From Caedibacter taeniospiralis (GTDB lineage: Bacteria; Pseudomonadota; Gammaproteobacteria; Francisellales; Francisellaceae), in contig NZ_PGGB02000018.1 of the NCBI RefSeq assembly GCF_002803295.2, positions 8,214 through 17,871 of the forward strand: 9,658 bases of DNA. The letters run 5' to 3'. This document shows positions 4,629-9,658 of the stretch, one piece after another. The position numbers were made by a program, and so were the translations under genes. Under the pieces are notes generated by a model. It had not been told where the DNA came from. It saw nothing but the letters and a program-made list of their open reading frames with translations, and did not search any database. Each line of letters begins with the position of its first letter. Within the stretch, counting starts at the first letter, position 1.

Positions 4629-5609
4629 TCAGCGACTACTTAAAGCTTGATTGAGCAGACTGCTTAGACTATTGTCTTTGGTTAGGAGACCTTTTGCTGC
4701 TTTATCTTGCAAGTAATAATTTTCACTGTAAATGTATTCGCTACTATGCTTGTATTCTAATATTTCTTGCTGTAACTTGTCAATCTCTTTTTGCTTATCA
4801 GCTAACGCTTTTTGGTAATATTTGCTGAGTTTTTTGATGCTGCCTTTCTGCGTTAATTCCTGGTGTACTGGCATATATTCTTCACCTGCTTTTAACATCG
4901 CACGTGTTAAGGCAATAGAATCCGATTTCAAATGCTTAAATTCCTCAAACAAATCCATTAACTCAGACTCATCGCCTGTTTTGAGTAATGTCTGAAAAGC
5001 ACTCACTTTCTCATCAATTGCCCCATCATTGGTGTATTTCTTGAGATTGGCAATTTCACTATCCCATATTGACGCATATTCAGTCAAAGGATGACTGTTA
5101 ACTTCTTCTTTACCCTCTTTACCCTCATGCTGGGCATCTTCAAACAATTCAGCAGCTTCTTCAGCGGTGAGTTTGCCTGACTCCACACAGTCATGAAGCT
5201 TTTTGTCTAAGGTTTTAAGCTTACGTGATAGCTGATTTCCCCATTGCAGCGTATCTTGATGCTTTTGCTCAAGTAATAACAACGCTTGCTTTATGTCTGG
5301 TTCGTCTGACTTTGAATCAGCCATCTTTTTTTCTTCTTTTGCTTCTTTTGCTTCTTTTGCTTCTTTTGCTTCTTTGACGTTTTTTGCATCTGTCTTAGAA
5401 TCAGAGGTGCCATTATTGTCAACACCACGACTTGATTGCTCTTTAGGACGATTAAAAATATCTATCAAAGAAACCTTTGTTTTGTTTGTTTTATCTGTTA
5501 TATTTTTTTTAGAAGCTTCTGATGTTTTTGATGTTTTTGATGTTTTTAATGGATTCTCAGATGCTTCTATATTCTCTTGATTCAACAGTGACTCATTTAG
5601 TTCAGGCAT
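4629..5609 (-). CDS. scaffolding protein
   Basis: 326-aa ORF between the portal and capsid genes. It is highly charged with K/E-rich, low-complexity, helical-looking sequence (KTSKTSKTS, KEAKEAKEAKEAKEEK). GGAGGA (5615-5620) lies 5 nt upstream of the ATG at 5609. Confidence 0.75.
   Translation of the reverse strand: MPELNESLLNQENIEASENPLKTSKTSKTSEASKKNITDKTNKTKVSLIDIFNRPKEQSSRGVDNNGTSDSKTDAKNVKEAKEAKEAKEAKEEKKMADSKSDEPDIKQALLLLEQKHQDTLQWGNQLSRKLKTLDKKLHDCVESGKLTAEEAAELFEDAQHEGKEGKEEVNSHPLTEYASIWDSEIANLKKYTNDGAIDEKVSAFQTLLKTGDESELMDLFEEFKHLKSDSIALTRAMLKAGEEYMPVHQELTQKGSIKKLSKYYQKALADKQKEIDKLQQEILEYKHSSEYIYSENYYLQDKAAKGLLTKDNSLSSLLNQALSSR
5333..5376. repeat. 9-bp tandem repeat (cttcttttg, about 4.9 copies) inside the scaffolding gene
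   Basis: Read directly from the sequence. It encodes (KEA)n on the minus strand. Confidence 0.9.
5521..5547. repeat. 9-bp tandem repeat (gatgttttt, 3 copies) inside the scaffolding gene
   Basis: Read directly from the sequence. It encodes KTSKTSKTS on the minus strand. Confidence 0.9.
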
Positions 5610-5773
5610 TATCTTCCTCCAGCATCTGTTATATTTAGATTATCCGATTGATTTGCTTGATTACTCTTCTGCAATATCATTTGAAAATCTTTAGCAAGGT
5701 CTTCGTAATCTCTAATTCCTAAACGTTTGAGCAACGCTGATGATTGTAATATCAGCATGGCATTTTGATTGCT
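5609..5773 (-). CDS. orphan 3' coding segment, probably the displaced C-terminal end of a portal gene
   Basis: The frame ...SNQNAMLILQSSALLKRLGIRDYEDLAKDFQMILQKSNQANQSDNLNITDAGGR* is open. Its TAA (5611..5609) overlaps the scaffold ATG in a TAATG arrangement. The only internal ATG (5758) has no SD, so it looks like the tail of a longer gene rather than an independent gene. It is too short (under 60 aa from ATG) to appear in the supplied ORF track. Confidence 0.4.
   Translation of the reverse strand, partial: SNQNAMLILQSSALLKRLGIRDYEDLAKDFQMILQKSNQANQSDNLNITDAGGR
5615..5620 (-). promoter_or_regulatory. Shine-Dalgarno site (GGAGGA) for the scaffolding gene
   Basis: The reverse complement of tcctcc is GGAGGA, 5 nt before the ATG at 5609. 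It is embedded in the last codons (..AGGR*) of the upstream coding segment. Confidence 0.75.
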
Positions 5774-5808
5774 GAGCAACGCTCGCTGCGAGCCATGGAT
5801 AGCGGAAC

Positions 5809-6074
5809 GCGAGGGCGAGTAGACCCGGGTAGCCTTGCGCTGTTGATCAGCAAGCGACGTGCCGAAGGCGCCAGAGCGAAGTCTGTGAAAAAGCTTTTAC
5901 CCAAGGCGTAGAGTAGAATCGGAAACGTGTTGTCTGTTCGGAATGAGCGTAGCGAATTTGTGAGGACAAGCACCGTTGAGGCGGGCGGCCCGGGCAAAAT
6001 TTATACCGCCGAGGATAGCCGATTCGATTTTGTGTATGGATATACAAAATCTATCATGAGGCCCGAGGCACCCT
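5809..6074 (+). repeat. copy 1 of a GC-enriched, hairpin-rich inverted-repeat element (true left end uncertain, possibly about 5774)
   Basis: My base-by-base comparison shows the reverse complement of 5809-6074 equals 9393-9658 except for one position (G5985 versus its equivalent at 9482). GC is 138/260 in 5811-6070 versus 41/100 in 6101-6200, both by hand count. All reading frames are open, so there is no coding signature. Confidence 0.95.
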
Positions 6075-7733
6075 GTCAAGTCGAGCCTGTTGCTCTTGAG
6101 TTGGACTTTCAAAATCAGGAACTTCCTCAATATGAATAGACAAAGGCAATGTCCTGATATCATTGACAACCACTCGCTTGCCGTCCACATCATGAACACA
6201 ATTCAAAATGACAATTTCTCGCTTCTCATCTTCTGTCAAAATCTGCGATTCAAGAAAAGCACCAGAGCCAGATTGAATTAAATTAAGCATCATTCTCGCT
6301 TCACGTTTCTTCATCAATTTAAGATTATCAAACGCAATCGTCTGACCTCTGACTGAGTTCACTTGCCGCGCTCTGATTGCTACACCACTTTGCGCATTGG
6401 TTTCTTTGCCAAGCGCCTCATCATAATACCCAGAGACACGTTGTATATCCTCAACAGTCTTTTCTAGTAAAGTAAAATACCCACCAGAAATTTGATTATT
6501 GGCATGCAATTCAAATCGACTTCCTGGTGATATTTCAATAGCAGCACCAGGATCGCTTAACATCGCTTCAATTTCATGTGGTTCTTTGTTAGAGAAAGCA
6601 CCTTCATCATAAATTGCGCGCGTGGAACTTAATAAATAAGACAGTCGAGTTTGTAGTGAATTGTATCTACGCTGTACAGGTTTCATTGAAGACAACCAAC
6701 CGTCGGGAACTCCATCACTATAGCGTCGTGACCACAGACAAGGAATATAAGTAAAATCTGGAAGATCAGGTACATTAGGCTTTAACGGCGCATATTCCAA
6801 CAGTCTATCTTCAGTAAACAACACGCGCATAATTGCTTTTGATGATTTCCTTTCTAAATCAGTCATTTTCTCAACAAGGCTTAATGCCTCTTTCTCATTA
6901 AAAGTGGCAAAATAATGACCATTGATATCCATTCCCTCAAAACTCATCATCTCCTGACGATATTGAACTTCAATCACACGAACACGTCGACCATATCCTT
7001 CACCTAAGTAAAAAGTATCTAACTCAATCTCTGCTCTTTGCTGAATCTCAGGAGAAACCTCTCCTTGATATTGCTTCCACTCTTTCGCCTCTCTTACATT
7101 TTTTACAACACTAAATCTAGAATCAAAATAACTGCTATGCTTAGGCCATAATCTTTTCATTTCAGCTAACGAAATCCAGCGAATACGAATAACAAACTCC
7201 GAGTTATTCAACTGCGAACTTAAGTCATCTGGGTCAAAAAGCACATCTAACGGATGCACATGCTCATAGATAATTTCGCTTGTACTGGGTTGTTTGAATA
7301 GGTTACTCCAACCAATACCCGTAATCAGCATATCCATGAATTTCTGGGTGGCTTTATGCGTCATGTCTTGATTTTCTTGAATATGATAGCCTAAGTGCGT
7401 AATCGCTTTAGCTAATCGATCGTCTTTCACATTGCCTGAGCTACTTCTAAAGGCAACACGAAAGCGTGTCTGAACATCAACGCCTGTCAGGCTGTTAATA
7501 ATCGGTTTGACAATGTTAAGTACTTCTGGCGGATAGCCATTAGCCGATAACTTGTGTAACTGAGATTTGTCCCACTGTCCCGTACCATCGTAGAAACCAT
7601 AATCCTCTATGGCTTTTTTACGATAAGCCTTGTTCACTTGGCTCGTCGCCGCATAACGAAAATAATACTGTGCCAAATCCAGTGCTTCTTTTTGTTTTAC
7701 GGTTAATTTTTGTTCCAAAGTTAGGTACTCCAA
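6054..7733 (-). CDS. portal protein (3' end altered or truncated by repeat copy 1)
   Basis: 559-aa ORF immediately after terL. The N-terminal region has EDYGFYDGTGQW, a Y/F-x-G-x-QW motif common in portal proteins. The predicted start is TTG (7733..7731) with no clear SD. The last 7 codons (RVPRAS*) are read from the repeat element, whose boundary is at 6074. Confidence 0.85.
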   Translation of the reverse strand: MEYLTLEQKLTVKQKEALDLAQYYFRYAATSQVNKAYRKKAIEDYGFYDGTGQWDKSQLHKLSANGYPPEVLNIVKPIINSLTGVDVQTRFRVAFRSSSGNVKDDRLAKAITHLGYHIQENQDMTHKATQKFMDMLITGIGWSNLFKQPSTSEIIYEHVHPLDVLFDPDDLSSQLNNSEFVIRIRWISLAEMKRLWPKHSSYFDSRFSVVKNVREAKEWKQYQGEVSPEIQQRAEIELDTFYLGEGYGRRVRVIEVQYRQEMMSFEGMDINGHYFATFNEKEALSLVEKMTDLERKSSKAIMRVLFTEDRLLEYAPLKPNVPDLPDFTYIPCLWSRRYSDGVPDGWLSSMKPVQRRYNSLQTRLSYLLSSTRAIYDEGAFSNKEPHEIEAMLSDPGAAIEISPGSRFELHANNQISGGYFTLLEKTVEDIQRVSGYYDEALGKETNAQSGVAIRARQVNSVRGQTIAFDNLKLMKKREARMMLNLIQSGSGAFLESQILTEDEKREIVILNCVHDVDGKRVVVNDIRTLPLSIHIEEVPDFESPTQEQQARLDRVPRAS

Positions 7734-7746
7734 AAATCTTAAAAAA

Positions 7747-9171
7747 CTAAAAAATGCCTTTTAGTGAAGGTCGATTATGGTAGGTACTGTTTCGTTGAAT
7801 GTCACTTTTGGCTAACCGCTCACCACTCATAACAATGTATCGTAAACAATCCATTAAGTGATCATTGCCTTTTTTGACATGACCTTTCTCATCTCGGCTA
7901 TACATCCTGAATTCCTTCAATGTGTTGTTTAAGGTATTGAATATCTTGAGTTTGCCATTTTGGAAACGTTGCAGTACCTTCATAATACCTTCTTCTTTCG
8001 CATTATCCGCTTTGTATAAGTAACGCAAACCTGAATCGCGATACAATTGCGCTAAATCACCACCATCACGTTGTGATGACTGCTCTCCCGCTGGGTCATA
8101 AACACCGTTTATTTTATCGGCTCCCAGTTTTTTAAGCTCATAAACATGCTGTTGTGGCGTTCTTTCAGACACGTAATACTCGCCAGTCAGATACATCACA
8201 TCATTATCTCTATCAATCACAGCAAATAAAGCCGCAGTAGGATTTATCCAGCCAAAGTCTAAACCAAAAACACGTCCCCAGTGCTTAGGAATAACAAAAG
8301 GGTTAACTACAACAGCAACTTCAGAAACAGGATACACTAAGCCACTACCTAAGGATGGAATGCCATGCTTGCGTGCCTCTTTTTCATGTGGCTTTAAGGA
8401 TTTACTTAACGTTTCCTTCGCACTGTCTAACAAATGCGGATTATCGTCCCATGATGCCTGGATGTAAAAACGATTATTGACAATAGAACCTTCATCAACT
8501 TTGATAACTTCTTCGGTCATTTCACTCATTTCACTGACACCACTTCCATTGATGACTTCACGTTCAATCGTGGTTTCCTGAAACTCAAGAATCAAATCGG
8601 TTAATCCTAATAACGGTGTCATCGTTAACAAAACAATTCCTTCATTGTCTACTTCCGTAGACATCGTTCGCATCAGAGACTCAACGTAAATATCCCTTGG
8701 CGGTTCTTCATCCAAATGCACCAAATCCAACTTGGCTGCTTGGAATTTCTTCCGACCTTGTTCATATGACTTGAAGGTTAACTCAGAATAACCACCTGTT
8801 TTGTAGTCTATTTTGTAGCTGTGACGTAATCGATCAACCCCAATCACTAAGTCTTCTGCAATCATCTCCAAATAGGCTTTCTCTAAGACCTCTGCAGTCA
8901 GTGCCGTCGTCACACTCGCCGCCCATGCTTTAATCGGGCGAGTAAATCGTTTCCCTATCCACCATTGAGGATAATATCCCGTAAGGTGCATCACACTTTC
9001 AGCAACCCCACAATACGTCTTCCCCGTTCTATTGCCTGCTAAGAACAATCGCTCTTTGGCACTTGCTCCTGCTGCGTGAAACTGTCGCTGCTTTTTGTGT
9101 GGAGTATACAGCAAAAAATGCTTCTGAACATGGTTAAAAGCCGCATCAACTACGAAACTATCAATATTCAT
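7747..9171 (-). CDS. terL: terminase large subunit
   Basis: 474-aa ORF with Walker A-like LAGNRTGKTY and Walker B-like LDLVHLDEEP in the N-terminal ATPase half, followed by a C-terminal nuclease-sized domain. It is followed by the portal gene. Its ATG lies 3 nt after the stop of the upstream small gene. Confidence 0.92.
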   Translation of the reverse strand: MNIDSFVVDAAFNHVQKHFLLYTPHKKQRQFHAAGASAKERLFLAGNRTGKTYCGVAESVMHLTGYYPQWWIGKRFTRPIKAWAASVTTALTAEVLEKAYLEMIAEDLVIGVDRLRHSYKIDYKTGGYSELTFKSYEQGRKKFQAAKLDLVHLDEEPPRDIYVESLMRTMSTEVDNEGIVLLTMTPLLGLTDLILEFQETTIEREVINGSGVSEMSEMTEEVIKVDEGSIVNNRFYIQASWDDNPHLLDSAKETLSKSLKPHEKEARKHGIPSLGSGLVYPVSEVAVVVNPFVIPKHWGRVFGLDFGWINPTAALFAVIDRDNDVMYLTGEYYVSERTPQQHVYELKKLGADKINGVYDPAGEQSSQRDGGDLAQLYRDSGLRYLYKADNAKEEGIMKVLQRFQNGKLKIFNTLNNTLKEFRMYSRDEKGHVKKGNDHLMDCLRYIVMSGERLAKSDIQRNSTYHNRPSLKGIF

Positions 9172-9174
9172 TTT

Positions 9175-9411
9175 TCATGACTCAATAATTTTACGTATGG
9201 CTAAAGCTTTTTCATCTGTCAGTTGAATATCTGGAATATTTTTAACTTCCATTAATTTATCAGCAGAGCACAAAAAATATGATAGAAATACCCTAATAGC
9301 TGAAATATCTCCATTTTCACCTAATACCTGTAACTTTCTTAACTGAGCTAGAATTTCATCTTCACTGAATTTGCTTAAAATATTATGAGTAAAGGGTGCC
9401 TCGGGCCTCAT
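9175..9411 (-). CDS. small protein in the terminase small-subunit position; 5' end supplied or replaced by repeat copy 2
   Basis: 72 unique codons (FTHNILSKFSEDEILAQLRKLQ...IRKIIES*) end 3 nt before the terL ATG. The unique part (9175-9393) contains no early in-frame start; its only ATG is at Met55 of 72. The first usable ATG is at 9411..9409, inside the repeat. The track ORF extends to a GTG at 9540. The terS assignment is by position only. Confidence 0.45.
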   Translation of the reverse strand: MRPEAPFTHNILSKFSEDEILAQLRKLQVLGENGDISAIRVFLSYFLCSADKLMEVKNIPDIQLTDEKALAIRKIIES

Positions 9412-9658
9412 GATAGATTTTGTATATCCATACACAAAATCGAATCGGCTATCCTCGGCGGTATAAATTTTGCCCGGGCCGTCCGCCTCAACGGTGCTTG
9501 TCCTCACAAATTCGCTACGCTCATTCCGAACAGACAACACGTTTCCGATTCTACTCTACGCCTTGGGTAAAAGCTTTTTCACAGACTTCGCTCTGGCGCC
9601 TTCGGCACGTCGCTTGCTGATCAACAGCGCAAGGCTACCCGGGTCTACTCGCCCTCGC
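9393..9658 (-). repeat. copy 2 of the inverted-repeat element (truncated by the window end)
   Basis: It is the reverse complement of 5809-6074 with 265/266 identity. Identity still holds at the last base of the window, so the true extent is unknown. Confidence 0.95.

Follow-up and report, generated by a model that had tools for sequence, protein, structure and literature searches.

An inverted repeat in the packaging module of plasmid pKAP298 from Caedibacter taeniospiralis as two probable insertions of a dispersed non-coding element

Two copies of element E in the portal and DUF5681 genes

The DNA analysed here, a 9,658-nt stretch from Caedibacter taeniospiralis (the window), was 100% identical to positions 15964-25621 of NC_005915.1. 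This record is the circular, 49,112-bp R-body plasmid pKAP298 of C. taeniospiralis, a symbiont of Paramecium tetraurelia. Within the window, a long inverted repeat brackets phage packaging genes. We conclude, with a probability of roughly 0.85, that its arms are two independent insertions, in opposite orientations, of a non-coding and non-autonomous mobile element (here called E) in the portal and DUF5681 genes of this phage-derived plasmid, and that E belongs to a family dispersed in C. taeniospiralis and its close relatives. The inverted-repeat layout is a by-product of two opposite hits and not a designed structure. E was identified together with its set of copies; its removal restored the interrupted genes exactly, and it showed neither target duplications nor terminal inverted repeats.

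A repeat finder placed the arms at 5809-6074 and 9393-9658, where they are reverse complements over 266 nt with 3318 nt between them. The sole mismatch within the window, seen in a base-by-base comparison, was G5985 against the base paired with 9482. The inner boundaries were sharp, with pairing at chance level beyond 6075 and before 9392. All remaining inverted repeats that the repeat finder detected in the window were at most 26 nt long and 73–81% complementary, so the 266-nt pair is far beyond chance. A preliminary description of the window had given the same arms, mismatch and boundaries. It had also reported an enrichment in G+C, which we confirmed (0.546 in the core of E versus 0.373 in pKAP298 and 0.397 in the 3.3-kb segment between the arms). 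The described length of 266 nt holds within the window, but the arms reach 291 nt in NC_005915.1, where they differ by one real mismatch and one N. Copy 2 is cut by the window end, as described, and continues to pKAP298 position 25646. Positions 15963 and 25622 of NC_005915.1 are both N, and the window is the N-free stretch between them. The suspicion that window position 9658 might be a contig end was thus unfounded, since the base that follows it is an N inside the circular record. NC_005915.1 contains 15 ambiguous bases in total, and window positions 1 and 9658 both abut one.

E consists of a 291-nt core (AGGGTGCC...GGCTCGCAGCG, its ends being AGGGTGCC and CGCAGCG) preceded by one variable terminal base. 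It is thus 292 nt long, with 55% G+C, and contained no credible open reading frame (ORF). Copy 1 occupies 5784..6075 on the minus strand (core from 6074 to 5784, variable base at 6075) and interrupts the portal gene in the sense orientation. Copy 2 occupies 9392..9658 on the plus strand (variable base at 9392, core from 9393) and lies antisense in the DUF5681 gene.

The truncated, P22-type portal ORF (559 aa; 6054..7733, minus strand) has its last codons and its stop codon inside E. It matched Pfam P22_portal (E = 4e-73, profile positions 3-507 of 594) and PHROG 156 (portal). On the other side of E, about 57 codons of the portal gene remain as an orphaned 3' end (5609..5783, minus strand), which overlaps the scaffold start codon at its end. 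The 56-codon ORF found there (5609-5779, minus strand) is homologous to the portal C-terminal sequence of relatives. In related viral contigs, with terminases about 46% identical, the portal is uninterrupted across the point where arm 1 is located, and tblastn found the orphan segment directly after the portal body in four of them (L007, L009, L010 and L019). The window portal reads ...QEQQARLD, then E, then ALLSNQNAMLILQSSALLKRLGIRDYE..., while the relatives read ...NLQQLLANPQAPLILQNPELLKLLRFRDYE... without a break. The two portal halves are in different reading frames and therefore require an insert of 3n+1 nucleotides, which the 292 nt of E fit.

The 3' part of the DUF5681 gene (9175..9391, minus strand) is separated by copy 2 from its first codons, about 23 in number, which lie outside the window. 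A small ORF at 9175-9540 (minus strand) has its start inside arm 2. When 292 nt were removed at arm 2, a continuous ORF was obtained (MPFKKGKSGNPNGRxPRKIxATTITHNILSKFSEDEILAQLRKLQVLGENGD...); the joined flanks also read MPFKKGKSGNPNGRxPRK...ITHNILSKFSEDEILAQL.... With its two ambiguous residues filled in, the joined ORF scored 34.1 bits against DUF5681 (cut-off 27.5) over residues 3-61, across the junction. The label small-terminase-like for this gene is based only on its position upstream of the terminase. The large terminase gene itself (7747..9171, minus strand; Pfam Terminase_6N and Terminase_6C) is intact between both E copies. Judged from the sequence, the portal would lack its last ~57 residues and the DUF5681 gene would be split. 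In both genes the halves are collinear, so the 3.3-kb segment has kept its original orientation and does not come from elsewhere.

An inverted repeat could also arise through an assembly fold-back or remain as the scar of a packaging module that was swapped or is invertible; a fold-back and a module-swap scar had been listed as options in the preliminary description. One arm does lie at the window end, and a functional module is bracketed by the arms. However, the window end is an N within the 49,112-bp circular record, and each arm parts collinear halves of one gene. The same truncated portal (554 aa) and truncated DUF5681 products are recorded on an independently sequenced 41,651-bp contig. 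This is the reported size of pKAP51, a plasmid of strain 51 with an independent assembly based on Illumina and nanopore data (PMC7297999). A Logan contig (L001, run ERR3813248) corresponded to window 6066-9422 without mismatch and crossed the 9392/9393 junction by 30 nt. These findings make both the fold-back and the module scar extremely improbable. With regard to a Gin/Cin-type switch, no invertase adjoined the 3.3-kb segment, and the arms are gene-breaking insertions. L001 extended only 9 nt into arm 1 versus 30 nt into arm 2; its short reach at 6066 could stem from a coverage gap, a variant at 6065 or a cause at the RNA level.

Copies of E and their insertion sites

Including both arms, pKAP298 carries five copies of E. 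The copy at 38855-39145 is identical to arm 1 (100% over 293 nt, 38853-39145), the copy at 33116-33404 shares 95.6% identity, and the copy at 32013-32124 (c5) is internally deleted. Two further copies, each with 94% identity, were located by protein query with the six-frame translation of E. The first interrupts a prophage integrase on a chromosome contig of C. taeniospiralis with a length of 42.9 kb (L107, 4846-5134); the second is located within a repeat-rich ORF on a metagenome contig (L108, 1516-1804). An exact 21-mer of the 5' end of E matched 19 more metagenome contigs, with different flanking DNA in each; most of them break off 84-127 nt into E, which is typical of assemblies at repeats. 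Yet another site was found in the assembly contigs L128 and L129, which have one flank in common. Beyond the five copies on pKAP298 and the one on the chromosome contig, E was therefore present at 22 distinct sites in metagenome and assembly contigs, giving about 28 copies overall. A single contig, L124, was tested for its origin. Its GH57 protein and a protein of C. taeniospiralis cluster together at ≥90%, so this contig is C. taeniospiralis-like.

E is a discrete unit that was inserted many times, in either orientation, into coding DNA and without duplication. Besides the portal and DUF5681 genes, its excision also restores a 433-aa integrase with HDLRH and the catalytic motifs, a (GIPGG)n protein and a 116-aa plasmid ORF. 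The preliminary description had named two insertions of a non-autonomous element among its options, and this option is borne out by the restoration of each gene and by the dispersal of the element elsewhere. The same description had held that many dispersed copies in the host would make E an ordinary host repeat; such copies exist, and its claim that no described feature has this layout was therefore too strong. The locus represents fairly ordinary genome decay: members of a host repeat family inserted twice into a degenerate prophage module.

Core nucleotides 1-88 were identical in every copy, and the differences clustered further inward. The L117 copy comprised the first 25 nt of E only. There was a conserved hairpin at core nucleotides 24-49 and an imperfect hairpin near the opposite end. 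Among PLSDB plasmids, pKAP298 was the sole match to E, and BLAST of INPHARED phages against the window and against E gave no match. Neither IMG/VR nor the GTDB species genomes contained an exact 43-mer of E; the GTDB genome set evidently does not include C. taeniospiralis, since the intron search there missed it too. Within a glgC-like (NTP_transferase) chromosomal gene, E was insertion-polymorphic between Caedibacter-like populations (L124 versus L128-L130), which indicates that the family was active recently.

Two pairs of empty and filled alleles were compared at base level. The first pair read ...GCAGTTAGAT|AAAGCAAAATC in L128-L130 and ...GCAGTTAGAT-C-AGGGTGCC in L124; the second read ...CTAGTTTAA|TTTGAAATAG in L132 and ...CTAGTTTAA-C-AGGGTGCC in L125. 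A third reconstruction of the insertion was provided by the 15-nt tandem unit at L108. Neither the two allele pairs nor the tandem-repeat reconstruction showed a target duplication, and no terminal inverted repeat pairs the two termini of E. The inserted DNA comprised the core and one non-target base, located beside the AGGG end. Over 26 sites, this base was T in 14, C in 7 and A in 5, and never G. It was T in all nine copies of the subfamily marked by CCTCGGCA (c5 counted) and mixed in the other subfamily. This association with the subfamily suggests that the base is inherited at least in part, and it weakens the interpretation as a fresh non-templated addition.

The flanks showed two regularities. 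G was present at position +4 after the 3' junction at 10 of 10 sites. A was the last target base before the insert at 7 of 10 sites and directly preceded the variable base in 15 of 26 flanks. No tetranucleotide was shared among the 26 flanks at one end of E or the 10 at the other. An identical 7-nt sequence, TATGAAG, followed E at L111 (558-846) and on pKAP298 (L025) at 39146-39152, which are positions 106-112 of the intron described below. This common flank could reflect a target preference or have been carried from a master copy.

The adjacent group II intron and readings at the RNA level

At 38855-39145 of pKAP298, E runs directly into a group II intron. The intron was recognized by matches to RF02005 (39092-39366) and RF00029 (domains V and VI; 40945-41058) and by a reverse-transcriptase ORF that scored 293 bits against TIGR04416 and ended at model position 277 of 353. 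The original depositors had annotated this ORF as a putative group II intron maturase. The contiguity with the intron, together with a GUGCC three bases from the start of E, would be in line with E being the 5' portion of a group II intron and its dispersed copies being intron fragments. However, a full intron with 98.5% identity (L106) and relatives with 86% identical enzymes begin GTGCGCC... and have a normal 104-nt 5' segment, and the similarity of all of these to pKAP298 begins exactly at 39146, one base past E. In L106 and in the relatives from Cysteiniphilum and Facilibium, the exon ends in ATGA and the intron starts with GTGCGCCAAGC.... Aligned with the intron 5' segment, E scored 18, compared to a mean of 17.4 for shuffled sequences. 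Furthermore, E alone had no Rfam hit at an E-value of up to 10, and no exon-binding motif was common to its insertion sites. Like group II intron fragments, E has one copy contiguous with an intron, on a plasmid that encodes an intron reverse transcriptase. In contrast to them, it replaces the native first 104-105 nt of the intron and is not that sequence. The domain match and 5' GUGYG start that mark such introns were not found together in E, whereas the relatives of the adjacent intron start with GTGCG and are without E. An origin of E as an intron fragment is thus very improbable.

The native 104-nt 5' segment of the intron was found nowhere on pKAP298, and the right junction of the intron-adjoining E keeps the G at +4 (TATG). 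The simplest reading is that E was inserted at intron position 105/106. The left side of the intron may have been lost later, e.g. by recombination between E copies. What remains of the intron at 39146-41058 lacks the first 104-105 nt, contains NN at 39364-39365 in NC_005915.1, and has a reverse-transcriptase ORF of 341 aa, compared to 447 aa in a protein with at least 90% identity (P0080). The pKAP298 intron is probably a dead copy. Every related intron examined (L029-L044, L106) was located directly after ...ATGA, and several sites (e.g. L038 and L031) had a Shine-Dalgarno-like GGAG/AGGA upstream. Regions of translation start may be the homing targets of this intron lineage.

In an AT-rich genome, E stands out as GC-rich and has precise ends inside essential genes, as might be seen if it were a self-splicing intron or another functional structured RNA and the interrupted genes still worked. 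A structured RNA gene had also been proposed in the preliminary description. The two copies on one transcript, however, are opposite in orientation, and Rfam gave nothing for E in the window scan, in the whole-plasmid scan or with E alone at the same permissive E-value. A scan for transfer and transfer-messenger RNAs also gave nothing. Single-sequence folds of E on both strands had no excess stability versus shuffled sequences (z-scores of 0.07 and 0.41), and consensus folds of five copies, again on both strands, contained no compensatory change in 80 or 87 predicted pairs. A self-splicing intron combines the orientation of its gene with a ribozyme fold, a combination that E did not display. 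We therefore give practically no credence to a functional RNA, and the proposed RNA gene was abandoned.

A different possibility is that E resembles a short interspersed nuclear element (SINE), i.e. a retroposon whose RNA of approximately 290 nt would be reverse-transcribed, perhaps by the group II intron enzyme of pKAP298, and inserted by target priming without duplication. The invariant 88-nt end would then serve as the recognition module of the enzyme, and the variable base would be a priming or run-off addition. Several features agree with such a retroposon: the absence of both target duplications and inverted ends, an extra non-target base solely at the junction beside the invariant end, the identity of 88 nt at one end across copies while the remainder varies, and the fusion of one copy to an intron encoding a reverse transcriptase. 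The L117 copy keeps the terminal 25 nt only, as 5' truncation would give, and the 7-nt flank TATGAAG is common to two copies. On the other hand, no promoter-like or terminator-like site was present in E, and the folds revealed neither excess stability nor covariation. The intron enzyme of the plasmid is truncated (277 of 353 model positions), the extra base is T in 9/9 copies of one subfamily and looks inherited rather than added per event, and a single truncated copy was found among about 28. We know of no bacterial SINE-like element. Taken together, we regard a retroposon as unlikely.

The template and variable repeat pair of a diversity-generating retroelement was also considered and rejected. 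The E copies are inverted and near-identical, with no adenine-specific changes, and no C-terminal variable region of a protein is involved.

Relation to known elements and meaning for pKAP298

Among known small elements, Rickettsia palindromic elements (RPEs) share with E that they are short non-coding repeats that proliferated in an obligate intracellular bacterium, within protein-coding genes, and that no mobilizing enzyme is known for either. As reportedly described by Ogata and colleagues in 2000, RPEs are palindromic, are about 100-150 bp long and spare the host protein through in-frame insertion. In contrast, E, with 292 nt (3n+1), is non-palindromic and disrupts the reading frame. [quoted passage not shown] Classical MITEs have terminal inverted repeats and a target-site duplication. 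E was short, non-coding and dispersed as MITEs are, but showed neither the terminal inverted repeats nor the target-site duplication.

Palindrome-associated transposable elements (PATEs) derived from IS200/IS605 come close to E in having no inverted ends, no duplication, hairpins near their ends and a length of a few hundred bases. The insertion point of PATEs lies 3' of a fixed target of 4-5 nt, which directly adjoins one end, and IS200/IS605 elements need a fixed target tetranucleotide. E matched the absence of inverted ends and duplication and the subterminal hairpins; however, no conserved target abutted it, its flanks had no fixed tetranucleotide and agreed only in a G or C at a distance of four bases from one junction, and the base beside one of its ends was not derived from the target. 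An IS110-type element with a bridge RNA was rejected, as it needs a specific target of about 11-14 nt and the E insertion sites are unrelated in sequence.

Because E encodes nothing, it would be moved in trans by a host-encoded enzyme located elsewhere. It most likely moves as DNA and without target duplication, by a mechanism of the single-strand (HUH-type) or recombinase kind. A DNA-level route is favoured since, to our knowledge, all characterized small bacterial repeats move as DNA. The enzyme would have a weak target preference, with A before the insertion point and G four bases after it. Rpn/YhgA-like (Transposase_31) genes are present on pKAP298 (28353-29252), and an ORF that looked similar by eye was seen on the E-bearing contig L116. 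These genes are candidate recombination enzymes, with a putative link to E.

Four points weigh against the insertion of a mobile element as we propose it. No described transposon family has a signature like that of E. An autonomous partner with the ends of E was not found, and the two ends were never found apart in the DNA examined. The variable terminal base is without explanation. Finally, the copy count covers the contigs searched and is not a true copy number, as a complete C. taeniospiralis chromosome is absent from the collection.

As far as checked, the E family is undescribed. Its unusual signature, i.e. no terminal inverted repeat, no target-site duplication and G at +4, is the only mildly novel part; together with the variable terminal base, it could point to an uncharacterized transposition route. 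With E, the mobile-element load of an obligate endosymbiont gains a repeat family that had not been annotated before. With both the portal and the DUF5681 gene split, it becomes clear why the packaging module on the R-body plasmid cannot function fully. pKAP298 is viewed as a decayed phage genome in two articles (PMC7297999; PMC3583457, citing Jeblick and Kusch 2005), and the broken portal and DUF5681 genes fit this view. Between two 291-bp inverted copies 3.3 kb apart, the terminase-portal segment could plausibly be inverted, and the copies, if co-transcribed, could form a long RNA duplex.

The minus strand carries every gene of the window. In the order of transcription, these are the small ORF at 9175-9540, the large terminase, the portal, the 56-codon ORF, a scaffold-like protein, the major capsid protein and an SU10-type adaptor. 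No record of the exact scaffold-like protein with its (KEA)n run was present in the Logan-containing collection, and no Logan contig over window 5328-5390 was retrieved. This segment contains five tandem 9-nt units (TTTTGCTTC, plus strand), which encode the (KEA)n run of the scaffold-like protein.

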